A stretch of DNA of 64,000 bases from Armatimonadota bacterium (GTDB lineage: Bacteria > Vulcanimicrobiota > JACPDS01 > JBDRKI01). The notes under the pieces were generated by a model, which did not search any database, was not told where the DNA came from, and saw only the letters and a list, made by a program, of their open reading frames with translations. Numbering within the stretch: position 1 is the stretch's first letter; every line of letters begins with the position of its first letter. Made by a program: the position numbers and the translations under genes. The stretch is taken from the NCBI GenBank assembly GCA_043814095.1, contig JBDRKI010000036.1:1-64000 (forward strand). The letters run 5' to 3'. Positions 6,336 through 31,803 of this stretch are shown here, in pieces.

Positions 6336-7889
6336 ATGAAAAGGGCTTTGATAAGCGTATATAAAAAAGAAGGGATAGAAGATTTTGCCCGGTCGCTTAA
6401 AAAACTGGGCTGGGAGATTATATCTACTTCTGGCACGGCAAAGATTTTAGAAAAAGCCGGCATAGAAATAACCCCGGTAGAGACTCTTACGCAGTACCCG
6501 GAAGTATTTGACGGAAGATTAAAAACAATAAGCTTTCAGATAGAAGCAGGGATACTGTTTAACAGGGAAGACCCCCGCCATGTAAAAGACGCTGAAGTCT
6601 CAGGCGTTAAGTCCATAGATATGGTTATATGTAATTTTTACCCCTTTGCCGATATAGCGGCTTCTGCCGGCACAGCTGATGAAGCGATAGAGGGTATTGA
6701 TGTCGGCGGTCCTACAATGGCAAGGGCTGCGGCTAAGAATTTTAAAAATGTTGTTGTTGTTACAGACCCTTCACAGTATCAGTTAATAATTGATGAACTT
6801 AATAAGTATGAGGAAGCAAGCTTTGAAACAAGAAAAAAGCTGGCTTCTACCGCTTTTTATACGCTTTCAAAATATGACGCCTCAGTTTATAAATATTTCA
6901 ATAAAAAGTTTTTTAATGAAGAATCGTATGATTTAAGGCTAAATAAAGGAAAAAAACTCCGTTACGGCGAGAACCCGCACCAGGAAGGATATTTTTACAA
7001 AACTGATGCGGAAGACGGGCTTGTGATTTCAGATTTTATGAAAATTCAGGGGAAAGAGCTTTCTTTTAATAATATTCTGGATCTGGACAGGGCTCTTAAC
7101 GCCCTTTCTTTTATTGCCGGCAAAGAGCCCGCGTGCGTTATAGTGAAACACGGCAACCCCTGCGGCGCTGCGCGCCGCGCCGCCGTAAGAGATAATGCGG
7201 AGAATGCGTTTCTTAATGCATGGGACGGGGATTCTCTGGCGGCATTCGGCGGGGTGATAGTTATTAATAAAGAAGTCAGTAAAGAGCTTGCGGAGTTTAT
7301 GTTAAAAGACGGAAGGTTTTTTGAGATTCTGGCCGCGCCGGAGGTATCCGAAGGAGCTAAAGAGATTTTCTCTAAAAAGCCGAAACTTATAATTCTTAAG
7401 AACCCCGCTTTATATAATCCGGCTTTAAATAAAGAGAAGGATTATAAAAAGGTGAGAGGCGGCTTTTTAGTCCAGTCTCCCGATATTTATGAACTGAAAA
7501 AAGAAAATTTAAAAGTTGTTACCAAAACTTCTCCGTCGGAAGCTCAGACGGAAGATATGATTTTCGCCTGGCAGATATGCAGGGCAAGCATCTCAAATAC
7601 GGTTGTCATGGTAAAAGATAAAAAACTTATATCATCAGGTGCCGGACAGCAGGACAGGAAAAGAGCCGCGGAACTCGCGGTTATAAAGGCGGGAGACAGG
7701 GCAAAAGGGTGCGTTGCCGCCTCTGACGGTTTTTTCCCTTTTTCCGACGGACCGGAAATATTATTAAAAGCAGGGGTAAGCGCCGTAATCCAGCCCGGCG
7801 GGTCAATAAGAGATAAAGATACAATTGGTGTATGCGATAAATACAATATACCTATGGTATTTACCGGGTTGAGATGCTTTAAGCATTAA
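6336..7889 (+). CDS. purH: bifunctional AICAR transformylase / IMP cyclohydrolase
   Basis: RALISVYKK, IDVGGPTMARAAAKN, LRYGENPHQ, VKHGNPCG, ASDGFFPF, IQPGGSIRD. Confidence 0.96.
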   Translation: MKRALISVYKKEGIEDFARSLKKLGWEIISTSGTAKILEKAGIEITPVETLTQYPEVFDGRLKTISFQIEAGILFNREDPRHVKDAEVSGVKSIDMVICNFYPFADIAASAGTADEAIEGIDVGGPTMARAAAKNFKNVVVVTDPSQYQLIIDELNKYEEASFETRKKLASTAFYTLSKYDASVYKYFNKKFFNEESYDLRLNKGKKLRYGENPHQEGYFYKTDAEDGLVISDFMKIQGKELSFNNILDLDRALNALSFIAGKEPACVIVKHGNPCGAARRAAVRDNAENAFLNAWDGDSLAAFGGVIVINKEVSKELAEFMLKDGRFFEILAAPEVSEGAKEIFSKKPKLIILKNPALYNPALNKEKDYKKVRGGFLVQSPDIYELKKENLKVVTKTSPSEAQTEDMIFAWQICRASISNTVVMVKDKKLISSGAGQQDRKRAAELAVIKAGDRAKGCVAASDGFFPFSDGPEILLKAGVSAVIQPGGSIRDKDTIGVCDKYNIPMVFTGLRCFKH

Positions 7890-18341: not shown

Positions 18342-18474
18342 TTAATAGAAAATCATTATTTTAAAGCATTTTTTTATTATTTTTCCGTTTTTTCTCTTTT
18401 ATTTAAATTAAATACGTTATTAAAAAGGGAAAAGAAGAAGAGCTAAGAATTAATTGATATTGTGGGGGGATATA

Positions 18475-19176
18475 ATGATCAGTCAGTCAAATAAATTAAT
18501 CGCTGTAATTGATGATGAGCCTGATATAGTGGAATTAATAAATATCCATCTTCAAAAAAGCGGGTTTAAGGTTAAAACTTTCCAGGAAGCCGAATCCTTT
18601 TTAGAGTTTATTAAAAATACCCAACCCTCCATTATAATTCTTGATTTAATGCTTCCCGGTGCTGACGGGCTTGAGATCTGCAGATACCTTAAGAGCGAAA
18701 AAAAATATTCTTTTATACCTATTATTATGTTAACTGCCAGAGCGGAGGAGACGGATAAGATTATAGGGCTTGAACTTGGTGCCGATGATTATATTACCAA
18801 GCCTTTTTCGGTTAAAGAGCTTACCGCAAGAGTAAAGACCGTTTTAAGAAGGGCATCAAGCTCCGCAAAATCCGATTCTGCGGATATAATTGAGATCGGC
18901 GGAGCGTTAAAGATTGACGTCCAGAAGTATGAAGTCAGGATTTATGATAAGAAAGTAGATTTAACCACAACGGAATTTAAAATGCTCGAGCTTCTTGCCG
19001 AAAAAAGAGGCAGGGTTCTAAAAAGGGATGATATACTTGACTGCATCTGGGGTGACGATAAGGATGTTTTAGACAGGACAATAGATACGCATATGAAAAA
19101 CTTAAGAAAAAAACTGGGGGATGCCTCGGATCTTATAAAAAACATAAGGGGCATAGGTTATAAGATAGAAATATGA
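18475..19176 (+). CDS. phoB: OmpR/PhoB-family response regulator
   Basis: Receiver domain (DD, LDLMLP, KPF) plus winged helix (RTIDTHMKNLRKKL); located next to the pst operon. Start moved to the ATG at 18475. Confidence 0.88.
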   Translation: MISQSNKLIAVIDDEPDIVELINIHLQKSGFKVKTFQEAESFLEFIKNTQPSIIILDLMLPGADGLEICRYLKSEKKYSFIPIIMLTARAEETDKIIGLELGADDYITKPFSVKELTARVKTVLRRASSSAKSDSADIIEIGGALKIDVQKYEVRIYDKKVDLTTTEFKMLELLAEKRGRVLKRDDILDCIWGDDKDVLDRTIDTHMKNLRKKLGDASDLIKNIRGIGYKIEI

Positions 19177-20900
19177 AAAGACATTTTTTTTATAAAATAT
19201 TCTCCGGATACTTCTTGATAATATTATCTCTTACTGTTCTGATTTTCTTTTTTTCATTTCAGATTATAAGGGATAATTATATAGAGATTACAACTTCAAA
19301 TCTTAAAAATATCACCAGATCTTTAATGCCTGAGGTTTTTTTATTTATAAAAAACAAGCAGCTTGATGAACTGGATTTATTTGTTAAAAATATGGGCAAG
19401 TCTATTAATGCGAGAATTACGGTTGTAAGCAAAAACGGAGCAGTTTTAGCGGATTCTCAGGAAAATCCGGTCAATATGGAAAACCACAAAGAAAGACCCG
19501 AGATCGCAGGCGCTCTTACCGGCTCGACGGGGAAAGACCTGCGTTTCAGCAACACCGTTAAAAAAGATATGCTCTATGTGGCGCTTCCTGTTGAATATAA
19601 TAATGAAGTTTACGGGGCATTAAGGACAAGCGTGTTTCTTAAGGATATAAACAGCCTGCTGTACATCCTAAAGATAAAGATTGCACAGATTGTAGCGATA
19701 ATATTAATACTTTCAATAATTGCCGCTGCGCTTCTTGTCCGTGGTTTTTCAAAACCCGTACAAGAGTTAAGTGCGGCTTCTAAAAAATTAGCAGAGGGCG
19801 ATTTTGATGTAAGAGTGCTTTTAAAGAATAAGGATGAGTTAAAAGATCTTGCGGATAGTTTTAATTATATGGCCTCCAGAATAAAGAACTTGTTTAAGGA
19901 AGTATCGGGCCAGAAAGAAGAACTTAACGGCATTATTTCATCCATTCAGGAACTGCTGGTTGTATTGGACTATAAGGGCAGGATTATTCTTTCAAACGAT
20001 AGCTTTAAAAAATATGTTAACAATATGGATATGCGGGATAAATTTTACTGGGAAATCCCGGGCATGGCCGGACTTGAGGAGATTGTAGAAAAGGTTTCTT
20101 CTCTTAACGAAAGCGCTTCGGGTGAGATAAAAATAAATGAAGATATTTTTATCTGCACGGTTGCCCCGAGCAAATATAAAGAGAAAAAGACCGTAATCCT
20201 TCATAATATAACGGAGGTAAAGCGGCTGGAAAAACTAAAAAAGGATTTTATTTCAAATGTTTCCCATGAGATGAGGACCCCTCTTACCGCCATAAAGGGT
20301 TTTGCCCAGACACTGGAAGATTCCGCGGATCAGGAAAGCAGGCGTTTTGCTGATATTATAAATAAGCATGCCGACCGGCTTATGAATATAGTGCAGGATC
20401 TTCTTCTTCTTTCCGAACTTGAGGAGAAGGGATCAAAGCTTGAGGTAGAGGAAGTGGATCTGGAAAAATTAGCTAAAGGTATAATAAATATATTTGATTT
20501 TAAGGCGAAAGAAAAAAACATTAATTTAAATCTTGTTTCCGATCAAAAGATACCCGGCATTAAGCTTGATCCGTTTAAGATTGAACAGGTTTTTATAAAC
20601 CTTATAGATAACGCGGTTAAATATACCGAATCAGGAGATATAAAAATTATACTTAAAAACGAAGGGCCTTCCGTAAGGGTTGAAGTGCAGGATACGGGGA
20701 TAGGCATCCCTGCGGAACATATCCCCAGAATATTTGAAAGATTTTATGTTGCCGATAAATCCCGTTCAAGGAAGATAGGTGGCACGGGGCTTGGCCTTTC
20801 CATCGTAAAACATATAGTTTTACTGCATGGCGGAAATATAAATGTTGAGAGTATGCCGGGTTGCGGCACTAAATTTATAATTTATCTTCCTTTAAATTAA
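19173..20900 (+). CDS. phoR: PhoR-like sensor histidine kinase
   Basis: TM-Cache-like (MENHxxRPE)-TM-HAMP-PAS-HisKA (SHEMRTPL)-HATPase. Confidence 0.88.
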   Translation: MKRHFFYKIFSGYFLIILSLTVLIFFFSFQIIRDNYIEITTSNLKNITRSLMPEVFLFIKNKQLDELDLFVKNMGKSINARITVVSKNGAVLADSQENPVNMENHKERPEIAGALTGSTGKDLRFSNTVKKDMLYVALPVEYNNEVYGALRTSVFLKDINSLLYILKIKIAQIVAIILILSIIAAALLVRGFSKPVQELSAASKKLAEGDFDVRVLLKNKDELKDLADSFNYMASRIKNLFKEVSGQKEELNGIISSIQELLVVLDYKGRIILSNDSFKKYVNNMDMRDKFYWEIPGMAGLEEIVEKVSSLNESASGEIKINEDIFICTVAPSKYKEKKTVILHNITEVKRLEKLKKDFISNVSHEMRTPLTAIKGFAQTLEDSADQESRRFADIINKHADRLMNIVQDLLLLSELEEKGSKLEVEEVDLEKLAKGIINIFDFKAKEKNINLNLVSDQKIPGIKLDPFKIEQVFINLIDNAVKYTESGDIKIILKNEGPSVRVEVQDTGIGIPAEHIPRIFERFYVADKSRSRKIGGTGLGLSIVKHIVLLHGGNINVESMPGCGTKFIIYLPLN

Positions 20901-20904
20901 TTTC

Positions 20905-20943
20905 TTCACACAAACTTCACAGTTTCTTTATACCTAATCCATA
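20905..20943 (+). promoter_or_regulatory. Pho-box-like direct repeats upstream of the porin-pst operon
   Basis: TTCACA (20905), TTCACA (20916), TTTATA (20927), TCCATA (20938), in exact 11-bp phase. Confidence 0.7.
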
Positions 20944-20995
20944 AATATTAGTTATATTCTTATTGGAAGTTAATTTTTATGCATAAGGAGAGGGT

Positions 20996-22249
20996 ATGAA
21001 GAAAATAGCGCGGAGACTCCTTTCAAATACTAAAAAGAAAAAAGTCTTGTTGGCGCTTTTTGTTTTATTTATTTCTCTTTTTCTTTTGGTAAAAATATCC
21101 GCTGCCGCAGAGATGGATAAGCTTATAGACAAGCTTGTCGAGAAGGGTATTTTAACCCGGGATGAAGCAAAGCAGATAATAGTGGAAGTGGAGCAGGAAA
21201 ATAAATTGAAGCCGGATACAGTAAAATCTGCAGAGACGATAAAGTTAAAAGGAGATCTGAGAATAAGGTATCAGAATGAAGAAGACGGTGATGAACTTAA
21301 AAACCGCCAGCGCGGGAGATATAGAGCCCGTTTGGGCGCGGAAACAAAAGTTAATAGCAATACGAGTGCTGCCCTGGGTCTTGTGGCCGGAGAAAACGAT
21401 CCGCGTTCCAGAAACTTAACTTTCCAGAACTATTTTGAGACCCCCGGCATGAGATTAGATTACGCGTATACAACATATAAGGCTTACCCATGGGCGACGG
21501 CCGAAGTCGGCAAAATGAAGGAAGTAAGAAAGCTGGTTTTCAGCCCGTCAGATCTTTTATGGGATTCAGATATAAATCCGGAGGGGGCTTCGGTTCTTTT
21601 TTCTAAAAAAGTAAATAACAAATTTAGTTTGTTTGCTAATACAGGAGTATGGATTCTAGATGAATCTTCACGCCAGCCCGATCCTTTTATGTGTGTCTTA
21701 CAGCCCGGATTTCAGTATGAGTTAAGCAATGATTCTTATTTTAAAGCAGGGGCTACATATTACGGTTTTAAAAATGTAATAGGCTCATCTCCTGAACATT
21801 CTTCGGGCACTAACACAAGAGAAGGCGGCACATTGAAATATAATTATAGCGCATGGAATCCTACCGTGGAGCTGGCATTTAAGTTTCCTTTCGGCTTCAA
21901 GAGCATTCCCTTTCTTTCGTTATACGGCGAATATATAAAAAATCCCAGCCCCCCTGTAGATAATACGGGATATGTAGCCGGTTTCAGGTTCGGACATAAA
22001 AAAGTGCTGAATGCAAATGAGTGGCAGATCGGCTATAGCTACAGATTTTTAGCCAGTGATGCATGGCTTGATACTTTTCCTGATTCCGATATATTCGGCG
22101 GCTCAACCAATGTAAGGGGAAGTGAGATCACCTTATTTTACGGATTAAATGAAAATTCATACTTAGGTGTTGATTATTATATGGTTAGCAGGATTGAAGG
22201 AGATGACAAAAGAAACCTTCTTCAACTTGACTGGAATTTAAAATTTTAA
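20996..22249 (+). CDS. putative outer-membrane porin (phosphate-associated)
   Basis: Signal peptide, LVEKGILT N-terminal motif, GDLRIRY...RYRARLG, WDSDINPEG, C-terminal LQLDWNLKF beta-signal. Confidence 0.85.
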   Translation: MKKIARRLLSNTKKKKVLLALFVLFISLFLLVKISAAAEMDKLIDKLVEKGILTRDEAKQIIVEVEQENKLKPDTVKSAETIKLKGDLRIRYQNEEDGDELKNRQRGRYRARLGAETKVNSNTSAALGLVAGENDPRSRNLTFQNYFETPGMRLDYAYTTYKAYPWATAEVGKMKEVRKLVFSPSDLLWDSDINPEGASVLFSKKVNNKFSLFANTGVWILDESSRQPDPFMCVLQPGFQYELSNDSYFKAGATYYGFKNVIGSSPEHSSGTNTREGGTLKYNYSAWNPTVELAFKFPFGFKSIPFLSLYGEYIKNPSPPVDNTGYVAGFRFGHKKVLNANEWQIGYSYRFLASDAWLDTFPDSDIFGGSTNVRGSEITLFYGLNENSYLGVDYYMVSRIEGDDKRNLLQLDWNLKF

Positions 22250-22251
22250 CT

Positions 22252-22285
22252 AAACACCGGACTTAAGTCTAGTGAATATTATGCC
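22252..22285. repeat. 34-bp palindromic intergenic repeat, copy 1
   Basis: AAACACCGGACTTAAGTCTAGTGAATATTATGCC; 31/34 identical to 33112-33145. Confidence 0.8.
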
Positions 22286-22295
22286 GGGAGGAAAA

Positions 22296-23114
22296 ATGAA
22301 AATTAGAATCTTAACCATCTGTATATTGCTCTGTCTTATGCCCGGGCTTTTATTGGTCTCGGGATGTAGGAAGAAATCGGCTTCTGTACAGAGCATAACC
22401 CTTGCTGGATCTACTTCGGTACAGTCCTTTGCGGAAGAATGGGCATCTAACTATATGCAGAAAAACCCGGGATGCAGGGTGAATGTACAGGGCGGAGGCT
22501 CAACTGCAGGCGTGCAGGCGGCAATATCCGGCGTTGCGGACATAGGGATGACATCAAGGGATTTAACTGCTGGCGAACAGAAAACTTTACAGAAAAAAGT
22601 GGTTGCTTTTGACGGCATAGCGGTTATCGTTAATCCCGAAAATAAGATTGATAATCTTACAGAGGAACAGATCCAGGAAATATTCTCAGGCAAAGTAACA
22701 GACTGGTCAAAGGCAGGCGTGGGCAAAGGAACAATAAATGTAGTAACCAGGGAAGAAGGTTCGGGTACCAGAGCATCTTTCCAGGATATGATTATGAAGA
22801 AGTACAAGATAAATGCCGCTTCAATGGTGCAGGATTCCAACGGATCCGTAAGGGAGATGGTCTCATCTGATCCTAATGCAATAGGGTATATATCTATGGA
22901 TCTGGTTAATGATAAAGTAAAAGCGGTTAGTATAAACGGCATTGCGCCTACAGTGGAAAATGTAGAGAAAGGTGAGTATGAGACTATCAGACCGTTTTTA
23001 TTTGCATATAAAAAAGATATAAGTCCGGCTGCGCAGGCATTTATAGATTTTGTATCCAGCCCGGAAGGTAAGGCATTGATAAAAGAAGAGGGGTTAATAC
23101 CTCCTTCAAAATAA
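22296..23114 (+). CDS. pstS: phosphate ABC transporter substrate-binding lipoprotein
   Basis: Lipobox (VSGC), AGSTSV, QGGGS, REEGSGTR; ATG at 22296 follows a GGAGG RBS. Confidence 0.93.
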   Translation: MKIRILTICILLCLMPGLLLVSGCRKKSASVQSITLAGSTSVQSFAEEWASNYMQKNPGCRVNVQGGGSTAGVQAAISGVADIGMTSRDLTAGEQKTLQKKVVAFDGIAVIVNPENKIDNLTEEQIQEIFSGKVTDWSKAGVGKGTINVVTREEGSGTRASFQDMIMKKYKINAASMVQDSNGSVREMVSSDPNAIGYISMDLVNDKVKAVSINGIAPTVENVEKGEYETIRPFLFAYKKDISPAAQAFIDFVSSPEGKALIKEEGLIPPSK

Positions 23115-23157
23115 TATTATTGTTTGCAAGGATTTTTTAGCAGTAGATTGGTATTAA

Positions 23158-24030
23158 ATGAAATTTATAAGTAAATTTTTTGATCAGGAAAAAACAGCGT
23201 ATTACATATTTACGGTTATTGCTCTTACAACAATAGCGGCGCTTTTTCTTATTGCTTTTTTCATCATGAAAGAAGGCGTCCCGTTAATAGCAAAAGAAGG
23301 TCTTTTCAAATTTATATTCGGCAGGCTGTGGGAACCCTCAAGCGGTGTTTACGGCATTTATGCCATGATTATAGGTTCTATATGGATTACCATAGGAGCC
23401 ATGGTAATAGGGATTCCGCTCGGGCTTGCATGCGCGATTGTTCTTGCTGAATTTGCCTCATATAAGGCGGCGATGGTTATTAAGCCTGCGCTTGAGCTTC
23501 TTGCAGGAATACCTTCTGTTGTTTACGGTTTTATAGGGATGGTTGTGCTTGCCCCTATAATAAGGAAATATCTGGGGGGACCCGGCTTTTCGGTTCTTAC
23601 TGCTTCAATTGTTCTGGGGATAATGATTCTTCCTACAATTATAAGTATATCAATTGATTCTTTAAAAGCCGTGCCTTCAAGCTACCGTGAGGGTTCATAT
23701 GCGCTTGGTGCCACAAAATGGCAGACAACCTGGATGGTTGTTCTTCCTGCGGCAGGTTCCGGTATAATTGCCAGTATTATATTAGGCATGGGTAGGGCGG
23801 TAGGCGAGACAATGGCCGTTATAATGGTTGCCGGTAATTCAATAAAAGTGCCTCACAGTATACTTGATCCGGTAAGAACCCTTACAAGCAACATTGCGCT
23901 TGAGATGGGTTATGCGACAGGTGATCACCAGAAGGCCCTTTTTGCAACCGGTGTTATCTTGTTTGTGATGATAATGGTTTTAAATATTATTGCCAATGTA
24001 GCATTAAAAAGGAAGTTATCGAAAAAATGA
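23158..24030 (+). CDS. pstC: phosphate ABC transporter permease PstC
   Basis: ELLAGIPSVVYG, GRAVGETMAV. Confidence 0.95.
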   Translation: MKFISKFFDQEKTAYYIFTVIALTTIAALFLIAFFIMKEGVPLIAKEGLFKFIFGRLWEPSSGVYGIYAMIIGSIWITIGAMVIGIPLGLACAIVLAEFASYKAAMVIKPALELLAGIPSVVYGFIGMVVLAPIIRKYLGGPGFSVLTASIVLGIMILPTIISISIDSLKAVPSSYREGSYALGATKWQTTWMVVLPAAGSGIIASIILGMGRAVGETMAVIMVAGNSIKVPHSILDPVRTLTSNIALEMGYATGDHQKALFATGVILFVMIMVLNIIANVALKRKLSKK

Positions 24031-24863
24031 GAGTTAATCCTAAAAAAATGCAGAAATTTATTCAGATCCCTCTCTGGGGTTTTACGGTATTTTGTCTTGC
24101 GGTACTTTTTTTTATAATTGTCTATGTCTTAAAAAACGGTCTACCTGTTATATCCTGGGAGTTTTTATTCTCAGTTCCTAAAAACATGGGAAAATCAGGC
24201 GGCATACTTCCTATGGTTCTCGGGACCATATATGTAACCGTTGTAGCTGTTTTAATTGCGACTCCTCTGGGTGTAGGTACAGCCGTATACCTTACTGAGT
24301 ATACAAGAGAAAATAAGCTTACGGCATTTATCCGCTTTACCACAGAATGTCTTGCTGGTATACCTTCGATAATATTCGGCTTGTTCGGGTTTATACTTTT
24401 TGTGATTTATTTTAACTGGGGCTGGTCTATACTTTCAGGCGGCCTTACTTTAGCTATAATGATTCTTCCTACGGTTATAAGGACCTCAGAAGAAGCGATA
24501 CGTTCAGTTCCCTTTAAATTAAGGGAAGTAAGTTTTTCGCTGGGCGCAAACAGATGGAGTACAGTCTCAAAAGTTGTTATACCATCTGCTCTTCCGGGCA
24601 TTTTAACCGGCATAATTCTGGGGGTGGGCAGGAGCATAAGCGAGACTGCCGCGGTAATATTTACCGCAGGCTCGTCATTGTTGATACCTACATCTATATT
24701 CAGTCCTGCCCGTACAATGTCTGTTCATTTTTATATTCTTGCGCGAGAAGGTATATCAATGAAAATGGCTTATGGAACTGCAGCCGTCCTTATAATAGCC
24801 ATACTTATTATTAATTTTGTTTCTTACTGGATAATGCATAAATATTTATCAAGGCTTTCTTAA
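24027..24863 (+). CDS. pstA: phosphate ABC transporter permease PstA
   Basis: LAGIPSIIFGLFG, ILPTVIRTSEEA, GRSISETAA. Confidence 0.95.
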   Translation: MRVNPKKMQKFIQIPLWGFTVFCLAVLFFIIVYVLKNGLPVISWEFLFSVPKNMGKSGGILPMVLGTIYVTVVAVLIATPLGVGTAVYLTEYTRENKLTAFIRFTTECLAGIPSIIFGLFGFILFVIYFNWGWSILSGGLTLAIMILPTVIRTSEEAIRSVPFKLREVSFSLGANRWSTVSKVVIPSALPGILTGIILGVGRSISETAAVIFTAGSSLLIPTSIFSPARTMSVHFYILAREGISMKMAYGTAAVLIIAILIINFVSYWIMHKYLSRLS

Positions 24864-24890
24864 AAATTAATGATTAAAAGGAGATGAGTT

Positions 24891-25649
24891 TTGTCCGATA
24901 TAAAATTAAAAGTTGAAAAATTAAGTTTTTCCTACGGCAGCAATAAAGTCCTGGATGATATAAGTCTTGATATTAAAAATAGGGAAATATTAAGCATAAT
25001 AGGGCCGGCCGGTAGCGGTAAGACAACTTTCTTAAGGTCTCTTAACAGGCTAAATGATCTTTTTCCGAATACCAAGGCTGTGGGCCGCGTTCTGCTTAAC
25101 GATAAAGAAGTTTATTCTCCCTGCATGGATTTATTTGATTTAAGAAGAAGGGTCGGGATGGTTTTTGCGGTCCCTGTTCCCCTTATTAATACAATATATG
25201 AGAATATAGCTTACGGTCCTAAACTTATCGGGATAAAAAATAAGAAAAAGCTCGATGAGATTGTAGAAGACAGCCTGCGCCGTGCCGCGCTCTGGGATGA
25301 GGTAAAAGACAGGTTAAAAACTTCAGCGCTGCGGCTTTCGGGCGGCCAGCAGCAGAGATTGTGCATCGCGAGAACGCTTGCTCTTGATCCTGAAGTTATG
25401 ATGCTTGATGAGCCCTGCTCGGGATTAGATCCCATATCCACAATGAAGATAGAAGAAAACTTGCAGCAGCTTAAAGAAAAAATTACGGTTATACTTGTAA
25501 CAAACAACAATAAACAGGCTGCCCGCGCATCGGACAGGTGCGCTTTCTTTTTGATGGGTAAATTAATAGAGGTCGGCGCCACAAAGGATTTATTTGTAAG
25601 TCCTGCGGAAAAGCAGACAAATGATTATATAACCGGAAAGTTCGGATAA
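24891..25649 (+). CDS. pstB: phosphate ABC transporter ATP-binding protein (copy 1; Q-loop and H-loop degenerate)
   Basis: [32 protein letters not shown] start. Confidence 0.93.
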
Positions 25650-25662
25650 CAGGAGGCGGTTT

Positions 25663-26421
25663 TTGGATAAGGCTGTTATTAAAACAAAAAATCTTTCGCT
25701 TTACTACGGCAGCTTTAAAGCGCTTGATAATATAAATCTTGATATTCTTCCCAATAAGGTTACCGCCCTTATAGGACCTTCGGGATGCGGCAAATCAACT
25801 TTTTTAAGGTCGTTAAACCGCATGAATGATTTAATTGACGGCGTAAAAACAGAGGGAGAAGTCCTTTACAGTAATCAAAACATTTATAATAAGTGTGTGG
25901 ATATTACATCTCTAAGGAAAGATATAGGTATGGTTTTTCAAAGACCGAACCCGTTTCCGTCATCAGTATATGATAATGTGATTTACGGACCTAAAGTTCA
26001 CGGCATAAACAACAAAGAAAAACAGGATGTAATTGTTCGGGAATCCCTGGAATCAGTGGGTCTGTGGAAAGAATTAAAGGACTGTTTGTTTGAATCTGCT
26101 CTAAGTCTTCCTCCGTACCAGCAGCAGACACTATGTATTGCAAGGCTTCTTGCTGTTAAGCCTGAGGTTCTTTTAATGGATGAGCCATGTTCCGCGCTTG
26201 ATCCTATAGCAACAGCCAAAGTAGAGGAATTGATACATGAGTTGAAAAAGAATTATACTGTAGTTATAGTTACCCATAATATGCAGCAGGCGGCAAGGAT
26301 ATCCGACCGCACGGGCTATTTCCTGCTGGGGAAACTTATAGAGTTTGATGATACACAGAAAATATTTACAAATCCTGCCCAAAAAGAAACTGAAGATTAT
26401 ATCTCCGGGAAATACGGTTAA
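25663..26421 (+). CDS. pstB: phosphate ABC transporter ATP-binding protein (copy 2; signature motif degenerate)
   Basis: [34 protein letters not shown]; signature region reads LPPYQQQ. Confidence 0.93.
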
Positions 26422-26436
26422 AGAAAGAGGCTATTT

Positions 26437-27129
26437 ATGGAAAGACATCTTGATGAAGAGATAAGAAATCTGCATAAAGGAATTCTTAAAATGGGCGCAT
26501 CTGTTGAAGATATTATATCAAAGGCGATTGAATCCATTAAGATGCGCAACCAGGAATTTTCTAAAAGCATTATAGATTCAGATGACGAGATTGATACGGC
26601 AGAAGTAAAGCTTGAGGAAGAATGCATAAGACTGCTTGCTCTTTACCAGCCGGTGGCAGAAGATCTCCGCTATATAATTGCTGTCACAAAAATTGTAAAC
26701 GATTTAGAAAGAATGGCCGATATAGCGGTTAATATTACCGAATGTTCTATTGAGATGGCGAACGAGCCGTTATTAAAGCCGTTAATTGATATTCCAAAAA
26801 TGGCTGAGCTTGCAAAATCCATGCTGAAAAATGCCCTTAATTCATTTATTAGCAGGGATCTGTCTTTAGCCAAAATGATATGGATTCAGGAAGAAGAAGC
26901 TGATAGGTTAAGGGATCTGGTTTTTGAAGAATTAATAGGGTTTATAGAAAAAGACGGTAAATGTGTTAACAAAGCACTGCCCCTTCTTCTTATAGCGCGC
27001 CATCTTGAACGAATATGTGATTTATGTACAAATATATCAGAAGATGTTGTTTATATAATTACGGGCAAAACAATTAAGCACCAATCCGATATTATTAGAA
27101 AGCTGAATAATAATAAAACCGTAAACTAA
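26437..27129 (+). CDS. phoU: phosphate signalling protein PhoU
   Basis: QPVAEDLR, DLERMAD, HLERICD repeats. Confidence 0.95.
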   Translation: MERHLDEEIRNLHKGILKMGASVEDIISKAIESIKMRNQEFSKSIIDSDDEIDTAEVKLEEECIRLLALYQPVAEDLRYIIAVTKIVNDLERMADIAVNITECSIEMANEPLLKPLIDIPKMAELAKSMLKNALNSFISRDLSLAKMIWIQEEEADRLRDLVFEELIGFIEKDGKCVNKALPLLLIARHLERICDLCTNISEDVVYIITGKTIKHQSDIIRKLNNNKTVN

Positions 27130-30139: not shown

Positions 30140-30499
30140 ATGGATTTATCTAAAATCAGAAAACAAATTTCAACGGATATTTCTAAACGGACTAAATTAG
30201 AGAAAGAACTTTTAAACTCTTATTACAGAATAGAAATGGGGTCGCTTATTAAAAGATATGTCCTTTGCGGAAAGCCGGGATGTAAATGCGCCAAAGGGGC
30301 CAAACATGGTCCGTTTCTTTACTTGTATAAAGCGGTTAACGGCAAAAACATCCGCAGTTATATAAATAAAAAGGATATTAAGCTAATAAAAGCGCTTGAA
30401 CGTTATAAAGTATTCCAACAAAAACTGGCCGAAGTCAGGATATTAAATAAAGGAATAAATGAGTTATTTAACGATTTAAGAGATGGATTGTCGAAGTGA
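30140..30499 (+). CDS. DUF6788-like small basic protein (IS accessory)
   Basis: GSLxxRYxxCGKPGCKCxxGxKHGPxxYL motif; overlaps the transposase start (GTGA). Confidence 0.8.
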   Translation: MDLSKIRKQISTDISKRTKLEKELLNSYYRIEMGSLIKRYVLCGKPGCKCAKGAKHGPFLYLYKAVNGKNIRSYINKKDIKLIKALERYKVFQQKLAEVRILNKGINELFNDLRDGLSK

Positions 30500-31803
30500 C
30501 AGAAACGATAAAAATACTTTTTAAAACCGTTAGGCATTTTTTCCCGTCATTTTCGAGATGGCTTAAAGATATACCGGACTTTCGCGATAAGGCTAAAAGC
30601 GATTATAGTTTATTGCAATTATTTTGGGTGGGCATTTTCTTGTTTTTGTTTAAATTTAAAGCGCGGAGAAACATTAAATTTATGTTAAATTCGGCGGAAT
30701 TTATGAAAAATTTAAATCTATTGGCAACGCCTCTAAAATGTTTGGATAAGGTTCCTCATGGCGATACATTGAATTATTTATTGAAAGGGATTCCATCGAA
30801 ATATATCGCCACATTGAGAACGGAAATGGTTAGAACTTTAATCAGGAAAAAATGTTTTGTAAATGACCGGCTTGGCGGCAGATATTATTTGATTGTTATT
30901 GACGGCACATGGATGCTGAATTTTAATAAAAGACATTGCAAAGGGTGTTTAAAACGCGCCATAAATGAAGATAAATATATTTATTATCATCCGGTTCTTG
31001 AGGCTAAATTAATTACGGTTAACGGCATGGCCGTATCAATTGCCACTGAATTTATTGAAAATGCCGGATCATCTTCTAAACAGGATTGCGAATTAAAGGC
31101 ATTTTACAGGCTGGCCAAAAGACTTAAAGCCGATTTTCCTCAAATGAAAATTTGTATAGCCGCAGACGCTTTGTATGCGGCTAAACCGGTTTTTGATATT
31201 TGCGAGAAATATCATTGGAAATATATTATTACTTTTAAAGAAGGCAGCATGCCGGCAACTTATGCGGAATTTGAGAATTTAAAAGAGATTGAGCCGGGAA
31301 ATAAGGAAAATTTTACAACCGCAAAAACAGTTCAAAATTATCAATGGATAACAGAAATTAATTATGAGGGGCATTCGCTTGATATTTTAGAATGTGTCGA
31401 AGCAAATAGAAAAAACAACAAGGCGACAAAATTTGTTTGGCTGACTAATTTACCCATTAAATCTGCTAATATTTTACAAATCGCACAAGGAGGAAGAGCA
31501 AGATGGAAAATTGAGAATGAAGGCTTTAACATGCAAAAAAACGGAGGATATGGACTGGAACACGCCTACAGTCTAAATACTGAGGCGATGAAAAATTTTT
31601 ACTTTCTTCTCCAAATAGCGCATATTATCAGCCAGCTAATGGAGAAAGGGAACTTGTTAAAAGATTCCCTGCTAAAAACCTATGGAAGCATTAAAAACTT
31701 TTCTTTGGCGCTCTGGAGGGCATTTGTTTCCAAATCTCTCAATCCTGATGAGATCGACGAGTTGCTAAATACCCGTATCCAGATTAGATTCAATACTTCT
31801 TAA
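30496..31803 (+). CDS. DDE transposase
   Basis: IVIDGT, KQDCELKAFYRL, AADALYA, RARWKIENEGFN. Confidence 0.88.
   Translation: MTETIKILFKTVRHFFPSFSRWLKDIPDFRDKAKSDYSLLQLFWVGIFLFLFKFKARRNIKFMLNSAEFMKNLNLLATPLKCLDKVPHGDTLNYLLKGIPSKYIATLRTEMVRTLIRKKCFVNDRLGGRYYLIVIDGTWMLNFNKRHCKGCLKRAINEDKYIYYHPVLEAKLITVNGMAVSIATEFIENAGSSSKQDCELKAFYRLAKRLKADFPQMKICIAADALYAAKPVFDICEKYHWKYIITFKEGSMPATYAEFENLKEIEPGNKENFTTAKTVQNYQWITEINYEGHSLDILECVEANRKNNKATKFVWLTNLPIKSANILQIAQGGRARWKIENEGFNMQKNGGYGLEHAYSLNTEAMKNFYFLLQIAHIISQLMEKGNLLKDSLLKTYGSIKNFSLALWRAFVSKSLNPDEIDELLNTRIQIRFNTS

Follow-up and report, generated by a model that had tools for sequence, protein, structure and literature searches.

A conserved tandem PstB pair with reciprocal motif losses suggests a phosphate importer with one canonical ATP site

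Introduction

Pst is the textbook high-affinity importer of phosphate and the sensory input of the Pho regulon, and it is modelled with two identical copies of its ATPase subunit, PstB. How are we to understand a pst operon that encodes two different PstB proteins, neither of which has a full set of catalytic motifs? Such a pair lies at 24891-26421 of a 64,000-nucleotide stretch of DNA from an Armatimonadota bacterium (positions 1 to 64,000 of contig JBDRKI010000036.1), which we will call the window. In ATP-binding cassette (ABC) ATPases, each ATP is held between the Walker A and B motifs, the Q-loop, and the H-loop of one domain and the signature motif of its partner, and an earlier note on this DNA had proposed that all of the defects of the two proteins fall in one composite site of a PstB1/PstB2 heterodimer. 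We will argue that this one-site interpretation is well supported by comparative data and that the predicted design is conserved in many, mostly uncultured, bacteria. Annotation pipelines call both genes PstB, which hides the subfamily in databases.

Results and Discussion

Two PstB proteins with complementary motif losses

The two adjoining open reading frames sit precisely where the earlier note had placed them: pstB1 at 24891-25649 and pstB2 at 25663-26421, both on the plus strand and each encoding 252 amino acids. Each gene starts with TTG and is preceded by a Shine-Dalgarno sequence. Both proteins exceed the curated cut-off of the PstB equivalog family TIGR00972 (354.2 bits for PstB1 and 389.3 bits for PstB2, against 343.2), and they are 53% identical to each other (130/247). 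The AlphaFold2 model of PstB1 (predicted local distance difference test score 93.8) has the PstB fold: its best Foldseek match is 9k3x_C (template modelling score 0.94, root-mean-square deviation 1.2 Å, 49% identity), and 9k3s_C matches with a template modelling score of 0.91.

As read directly from its translation, PstB1 has a Walker A motif (nt 25002-25028), an intact signature (LSGGQQQRL, with LSGGQ at 25335-25349), a Walker B motif that retains its Asp-Glu (MMLDEP), and the D-loop SGLD. Its Q-loop, MVFAVPVPL, has Ala93 replacing the glutamine (codon 25167-25169), and its H-loop, VTNNNKQA, has Asn205 replacing the histidine (codon 25503-25505). PstB2 has the reciprocal losses. Its Walker motifs (A and B) are canonical and it keeps Gln93 in the Q-loop (codon 25939-25941) and His205 in the H-loop, VTHNMQQA (codon 26275-26277), but its signature is degenerate: LPPYQQQT (26107-26130) stands opposite SGGQQQR of E. 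coli PstB in a residue alignment to PDB entries 9k3x and 9k3s. The earlier note had read both proteins in the same way. Neither subunit has all of the catalytic ABC motifs, as PstB1 lacks Gln93 and His205 and the PstB2 signature lacks SGG. The full motif set is present in 51/51 canonical PstB proteins compared, a class that the same columns had defined.

If the two proteins pair in the head-to-tail geometry that is standard for ABC ATPases, and which is also seen in the E. coli PstB dimer (PMC12976172), then all of the defects do map to a single composite site, in agreement with the note. The site that combines the catalytic face of PstB1 with the signature of PstB2 (site I) takes every change, and the site that combines the catalytic face of PstB2 with the signature of PstB1 (site II) is fully canonical and invariant. 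Given this geometry and these losses, either homodimer would have two defective sites. Three substitutions would share one composite site by chance about one time in four, so the weight of the argument rests on conservation in other genomes and not on the window alone.

We considered a compensated frameshift as the origin of the unusual PstB2 signature and ruled it out: the codons (ctt cct ccg tac cag cag cag aca, 26107-26130) are in frame, and there is a stop in the neighbouring frame. Furthermore, a contig from a public groundwater RNA library matches 26117-26282 exactly, an interval that takes in the greater part of the odd signature, with the codon for Thr156. Three short contigs from this run are 100% identical to parts of pstA, of the pstA/pstB1 junction, and of pstB2, which is a weak hint of expression. 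Public runs cover small shares of the stretch (0.12 for a DNA run and 0.11 for the RNA-library run), and two further RNA runs cover none of it.

The two types co-occur in a fixed order

Scanning one genome per species with an alignment of PstB1-type proteins yielded 80 loci with 17 genes of this type (B1-type). A readable partner lies downstream of 15 of the 17, and in all 15 partners the signature is degenerate, with Glu in place of the second Gly (B2-type); the remaining two loci end about 150-210 nt past the B1 stop. A DNA pattern for the B1 H-loop alone yielded 120 loci from metagenomes, with 112 B1-type genes. Here the signature of the partner could be read in 62 loci and was degenerate in 62/62 (56 with Glu and 6 with Asp); in the other loci, either the partner is cut before the motif (27) or the locus ends just past B1 (23). 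Over both sets, and with the window excluded, the second Gly of the partner's signature is Glu in 71/77 pairs and Asp in 6/77. The Q-loop Gln, which lies outside the search pattern, is missing from 73/73 readable metagenomic B1 genes.

The earlier note had made its proposal depend on the substitutions being conserved across orthologous pairs, and they are: a B2-type gene with a degenerate signature follows the B1-type gene in 77/77 readable pairs, and a canonical PstB never does. B1 is upstream of B2 on the same strand in all 77, with a median stop-to-stop distance of 763 nt. pstC-pstA lies directly upstream of the pair in 15/15 genome loci, and pstS was seen in 14 of these. Where a locus has no B1-type gene, its canonical PstB gene occurs singly in our listing (52 genes).

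Conservation of the altered residues

We searched 5.8 billion proteins for homologues. Among the matches listed, the closest relative of PstB1 is 66% identical and the closest relative of PstB2 is 69% identical. For PstB1, 120 proteins were listed, which leaves 118 after removing the window's own protein and one chimeric open reading frame. Asn occupies the position of the H-loop His in 118/118, mostly as VTNNTKQA. Gln is missing from each of the 12 commonest Q-loop strings, which account for 100 of the 120 rows, and LSGGQQQR is retained in each of the 12 commonest signature strings, which account for 115. In an alignment of 45 PstB1 homologues, Lys44, Ser150-Arg156, Asp173, Glu174, Asn205, and Asn206 are invariant. 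The nearest relatives of PstB2 are a mixture: the H-loop His is present in 119/119, and 22 have a signature other than SGGQ (for example LSGEQ, LPLDQ, LTGEQ, or LSLEQ). Among representatives at 50% identity, about 7 of the best 150 PstB1 matches are B1-type and 95 are fully canonical, so the B1 type collapses into few clusters at this level of identity.

The two classes differ from canonical PstB at defined positions. Changes specific to the B1 class are Cys42Ser in Walker A; Gln93Ala, Asn96, and Phe98Leu in the Q-loop region; Ala178Gly in the D-loop; and His205Asn and Gln208Lys in the H-loop. Each of Walker A Lys44 and Thr/Ser45, Walker B Asp173, and the catalytic Glu174 is present in 89/89 B1-type proteins, as is SGGQ..R of the signature, and the aromatic residue of the A-loop is present in 80/88. 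In the B2 class, Lys44, Asp173, and Glu174 are present in 80/80, and the main catalytic change is Gly152Glu: position 152 is Glu in 73/80 and Asp in 6/80, and the sole exception is the window's PstB2, with Tyr152. Position 156 is Arg in 75/80 and is Thr156 in the window. The closest signature elsewhere to the window's LPPYQQQT is LPPEQ (locus L151).

Phylogeny and distribution

In an IQ-TREE tree of 72 rows, built with the motif columns removed, the B1-type proteins form one branch (Shimodaira-Hasegawa-like approximate likelihood ratio test support of 99) and the B2-type proteins another (97), the latter nested among canonical PstB. A FastTree tree of 156 rows gives matching branches. Tandem PstB pairs from Firmicutes were left out of these trees. 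In an approximately unbiased (AU) test, a single clade of B1 and B2 was not rejected (p-AU 0.633; the log-likelihood of the constrained tree is 7.96 higher), which is compatible with a single ancestral duplication that gave rise to both types. The pairwise distances of B1 and of B2 are correlated (r = 0.795 over 73 pairs; 0/999 permutations reach this r), as expected where the pair is inherited as a unit.

Genome records with the pair come from Planctomycetota, Verrucomicrobiota, Acidobacteriota, Gemmatimonadota, Thermodesulfobacteriota, Myxococcota, Poribacteria, Desantisbacteria, and WOR-1, and the sources of PstB1 homologues further include Ignavibacteria, Lentisphaerae, and Bacillota. Within the window's phylum, the B1 H-loop pattern is found in 1/401 genomes (1/247 high-quality genomes), which is the window's own genome. 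Its Pst-bearing relatives have a single canonical PstB, and a PstB search of the sole genome from the same order (75% complete) gave no match. A pair that is unusual in its lineage fits acquisition by transfer, and the window's lineage may have obtained it in this way.

The window's genome is a 2.5-Mb, 99%-complete draft in 129 contigs. It has no PstB over the family cut-off besides these two, so the pair is its only Pst motor. We dropped an argument from the necessity of Pst for phosphate uptake, as this genome also has a Pit transporter. Five other pair-bearing genomes each carry one or two additional PstB genes.

Several relatives of the pair are unusual in their own right. In a divergent sub-clade (L064, L065, L071, L074, and L078, of which L071 comes from a Limisphaera strain in RefSeq), PstB1 carries a proline at the Q-loop position together with LCLDEFSI after Walker B and VTNL(T/V)QQA; the signature of PstB2 is LQLEQQQKL; and the PstA helix reads REACWN. 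One of these loci, L065 from Candidatus Poribacteria, has a third PstB-like gene (6480-7277) downstream of the pair, between an extra pstA-like gene and phoU, with Arg in the Q-loop, the signature LSIGQQQLL, and the H-loop ATNKRRQA. A Gemmatimonadales genome (G045, which holds L063) has two separate tandem PstB pairs, on contigs C20 and C36. In a metagenome-assembled genome from Bacillota (L029:1897-2658), the only pstB of a pstC-pstA-pstB-phoU operon is PstB1-like, and a PstB2 is missing; the product keeps LSGGQ, but the Q-loop Gln is gone, as are the Lys of Walker A (GSGITT) and the catalytic Glu (LLDRP), so that this may be a decaying or purely regulatory Pst. Within the window's phylum, genome G040 has a canonical pstB and, about 1.7 kb downstream of it, a PstB-like gene (L022:1315-2250) preceded by two permease-like genes; every motif of its product is degenerate (Q-loop Pro, signature LPIDL, Walker B FDDP, and H-loop ATND). 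Finally, three canonical PstB-like proteins of 314-356 amino acids with an internal repeat of about 100 residues (P0122-P0124), and a 384-amino-acid frame in which the C-terminal half of one PstB is followed by a full PstB (P0002), are probably assembly or gene-calling artefacts.

Covariation and probable docking on the permeases

We scored 24,696 column pairs across 71 non-redundant B1/B2 pairs by mutual information with average product correction. The top pair joins B1:94, which lies beside the Q-loop position, with B2:151, in the signature, and B1:41 in Walker A with B2:151 ranks 84 of 24,696. The window matches the B1:94/B2:151 pattern, with Val and Pro. This covariation is what a shared site I predicts, and we regard it as a lead.

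In the E. coli PstB dimer, one subunit sits on PstA and the other on PstC (PMC12976172). The coupling (EAA) helix of the window's PstA reads REVSFSLG (residues 166-173, nt 24522-24545, plus strand), a form that is specific to operons with mismatched PstB proteins: Val or Ile follows the EAA Glu in 61/65 PstA proteins from these operons and in 0/36 canonical PstA proteins. The window's PstC has the ordinary EAA loop REGSYALGAT; the corresponding residue of PstC is Gly or Ala both in operons with the pair (59/59) and in canonical ones (43/44). Furthermore, in a sub-clade whose PstB1 has the Q-loop MVxPLPVGL, the PstA helix takes a different form, REACWN, and PstC remains ordinary. The coupling helix is received in a groove formed by the Q-loop region, and from this we infer PstA as the docking partner of PstB1 and PstC as that of PstB2.

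A predicted heterodimer with one catalytic site

We consider it probable that PstB1 and PstB2 are the two halves of an obligate heterodimer that powers the operon's PstS-PstC-PstA importer; in favour of this we count that only the mixed dimer has a complete site. Site II, formed by Walker A and B, Gln93, and His205 of PstB2 with LSGGQ of PstB1, would be canonical and catalytic. Site I, formed by Walker A and B, Ala93, and Asn205 of PstB1 with LPPYQ of PstB2, would be catalytically crippled. It probably still binds nucleotide, since PstB1 keeps the P-loop Lys, the Asp-Glu of Walker B, and the aromatic residue of the A-loop, and it would serve as a non-hydrolysing or very slow latch, with one ATP split per cycle. 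PstB1, with its altered Q-loop groove, most likely docks on the altered coupling helix of PstA, and PstB2 on PstC.

Might both sites of the heterodimer hydrolyse ATP instead? Site I could have been remodelled around Asn205, Lys208, and the acidic residue of the partner, so that the asymmetry would be only kinetic. Lys44, Asp173, and Glu174 of site I are invariant in B1-type proteins, and the replacements are themselves highly conserved (TNN[TV]KQA in B1, and Glu or Asp at the second Gly in 79/80 B2-type proteins), which looks like selection for a new function and not like decay. Nevertheless, we think this unlikely. Among the residues of ABC ATPases that tolerate change least are the His of the H-loop and the Gly of the signature, as in mutants of HlyB, MalK, and HisP. 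Within the PstB family, the signature motif appears to be highly sensitive, as the signature mutant Q160K of E. coli PstB is described as having no transport while signalling phosphate sufficiency (PMC5775613). Also, the window's own PstB2 has Tyr152, which implies that the role of the acidic residue is dispensable here. A different idea is that the two proteins do not pair at all, with a PstB2 homodimer as the motor and PstB1 as an accessory or regulatory ATP-binding protein, for instance in PhoU/PhoR signalling. Of the two proteins, PstB2 departs less from the canonical form, and its type is nearer to canonical PstB than the PstB1 type is (mean distance 0.489 versus 0.536). There is even a precedent in the tandem PstB proteins of Enterococcus faecalis, where PstB2 is reported to be required and PstB1 to be accessory, and excess PstB2 substitutes for PstB1 (PMC12096839). 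But the E. faecalis proteins are both described as canonical in their motifs, so this is not the same case, and a homodimer of the window's PstB2 would have a degenerate signature at both of its sites. The invariant LSGGQQQR of PstB1 (89/89) would be puzzling if it did not complete a working site with PstB2, and the coupling helix of PstA changes along with the B1 type, which suggests that PstB1 is on the transporter. Overall, we find the absence of pairing quite improbable.

Finally, one might attribute the substitutions to a redundant duplicate that is decaying, or to a mistake in the sequencing of this genome or in its assembly from a metagenome. The draft is in 129 contigs, none of the other B2-type proteins among the 80 has LPPYQQQT, and the Pit transporter could handle phosphate uptake. 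Yet both frames are intact and full-length, with good ribosome-binding sites; both proteins exceed the PstB equivalog cut-off; a compensated frameshift is ruled out; and an independent public run is identical over 26117-26282. Above all, the same motif pattern is present in 77/77 other pairs. Decay or error is contradicted by these conservation data, and we regard it as scarcely credible.

Several points weigh against an obligate heterodimer with a single catalytic site. The heterodimer and the dead site are predictions from comparative data. In exporters with a degenerate site, loss of the catalytic Glu of Walker B is called a hallmark (PMC7544095), but PstB1-type proteins keep Glu174, along with Lys44 and Asp173, in 89/89, and so site I may retain some (slow) hydrolysis. 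The window's PstB2 lacks both the acidic residue that is kept by 79/80 B2-type proteins and Arg156, and we found no relative above about 66% identity with which to test selection in the window's lineage. Our classes were defined by motif columns and the metagenome loci were chosen by the B1 H-loop, so the metagenome counts at positions 205-208 hold by construction, and the informative counts are those for the partner's signature, the B1 Q-loop, and positions outside the defining columns. For B1:94/B2:151, the medians of phylogeny-aware sign tests are p = 1 and 0.5, with only 7-8 and 4-5 independent contrasts, and the docking argument from PstA and PstC likewise depends on very few independent changes. 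The correlation of the B1 and B2 distances is expected of any two genes in one operon. By analogy with E. faecalis, whose subunits are both canonical, a tandem pair does not by itself prove an obligate heterodimer. The RNA-library contigs may come from DNA within the library, and with a Pit-type phosphate transporter in the genome, Pst need not be essential.

A more speculative variant of the one-site heterodimer, which we doubt but do not think far-fetched, is that the odd pocket is a purpose-built latch or sensor rather than a dead relic. The acidic residue of PstB2 would lie at the usual place of the gamma-phosphate and face the Asn-Asn-x-Lys of PstB1. Site I would then stay closed, or would report the state of nucleotide or phosphate, and one ATP at site II would drive each cycle. 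The window's variant, in which Tyr replaces the acidic residue and Thr replaces Arg156, would represent a naturally occurring loss of the latch. If this is true, then the ATP cost per phosphate might be halved in energy-poor habitats, or the state of the transporter might be fed to PhoU/PhoR.

Comparison with known systems

In the fused double-ATPase sugar importers RbsA and MglA, one of the two ATP sites is non-canonical, so site asymmetry in importers as such is not new. These belong to another family, are single fused polypeptides, and are unrelated to phosphate uptake or Pho signalling.

The class of ABC proteins with one consensus and one degenerate site is marked by two non-identical nucleotide-binding domains with all of the changes in one composite site. 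PstB1 and PstB2 are 53% identical and lie on separate branches of the tree, and by mapping, all of their changes fall in one composite site, as they do in the 77/77 other pairs. The conserved acidic residue at the second Gly of the B2-type signature sets the pair apart from exporters; we take this to be the position of G551D in CFTR. Also unlike the exporters, Pst is a binding-protein-dependent type I importer with a different transmembrane fold. As described for TM287/288, TAP1/2, CFTR, and BmrCD (PMC7756269), two different nucleotide-binding domains place non-consensus residues in one composite site, with the H-loop and Q-loop changes on one subunit and the signature change on the other, and the model is one catalytic site plus one latch or regulatory site. 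The window's pair is alike in each of these respects, with the model as our expectation. A further difference is that the odd site of the exporters loses the catalytic Glu (PMC7544095), which the B1-type proteins retain.

The E. coli PstSCAB-PhoU complex (PDB 9k3x, 9k3y, and 9k3s; PMC12976172) resembles the window's system in its operon parts (pstS, pstC, pstA, pstB, and phoU). As described, it has two copies of one canonical PstB and two equivalent ATP sites. In contrast, the window has two pstB genes that each lack part of the motif set and would together form one canonical and one non-canonical site, and the EAA helix of its PstA is different as well. The tandem pstB1/pstB2 of E. faecalis are adjoining paralogues in a pst-phoU operon, about 60% identical, with unequal roles (PMC12096839), and to that extent they are similar. 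But both carry the same canonical motifs and are not motif-complementary, whereas the window's pair has reciprocal losses.

The earlier note did not know of one canonical and one degenerate site as a described feature of Pst, and our search of the full-text literature (most subscription journals and supplements were outside its scope) turned up no account of a PstB that is degenerate or asymmetric. On tandem pstB genes it found a single study, that of E. faecalis, which itself claims that there were no prior studies of tandem pstB paralogues (PMC12096839). If our interpretation is correct, then the asymmetric architecture of exporters is also open to a binding-protein-dependent importer, and nature offers in this pair a means to ask how many ATP each phosphate requires. 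Furthermore, the PstB that sits on PstA could be told apart from the PstB that sits on PstC, something that E. coli does not allow, and this would ease the dissection of PhoU/PhoR signalling through PstB.

The surrounding operon

The pair belongs to a complete phosphate-uptake locus on the plus strand, which runs from a response regulator through phoU (18454-27129). The models for PstS, PstC, PstA, and PhoU, which flank the pair, all exceed their own cut-offs: PstS, the phosphate-binding protein, at 22272-23114 (TIGR02136, 1.9e-69); the permeases PstC at 23158-24030 (TIGR02138, 3e-89) and PstA at 24027-24863 (TIGR00974, 5.2e-84); and PhoU at 26437-27129 (TIGR02135, 1.4e-59).

Upstream are a PhoB-like response regulator (18454-19176), with receiver and winged-helix output domains (Pfam Response_reg, 1.7e-29, and Trans_reg_C, 4.1e-25), and a PhoR-like histidine kinase (19173-20900), with an N-terminal single-Cache-like domain followed by HAMP, HisKA, and HATPase_c (Pfam). 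From the position of their genes, both presumably act in Pho control. E. coli PhoR is said to be missing a periplasmic sensory domain (PMC5775613); in contrast, the window's kinase has its single-Cache-like domain N-terminal to HAMP, and its phosphate sensing may not be transporter-dependent in the manner of E. coli. Between the kinase gene and pstS is a gene for a putative outer-membrane porin (20996-22249, plus strand; Pfam Porin_5, 1.1e-42), for which an NCBIfam search gave no match; its product may be a phosphate-related outer-membrane channel. Further along, downstream of a purL-like gene, there are two overlapping open reading frames of 119 and 435 amino acids at 30140-31803 on the plus strand, the longer of which looked transposase-like when we read its translation.

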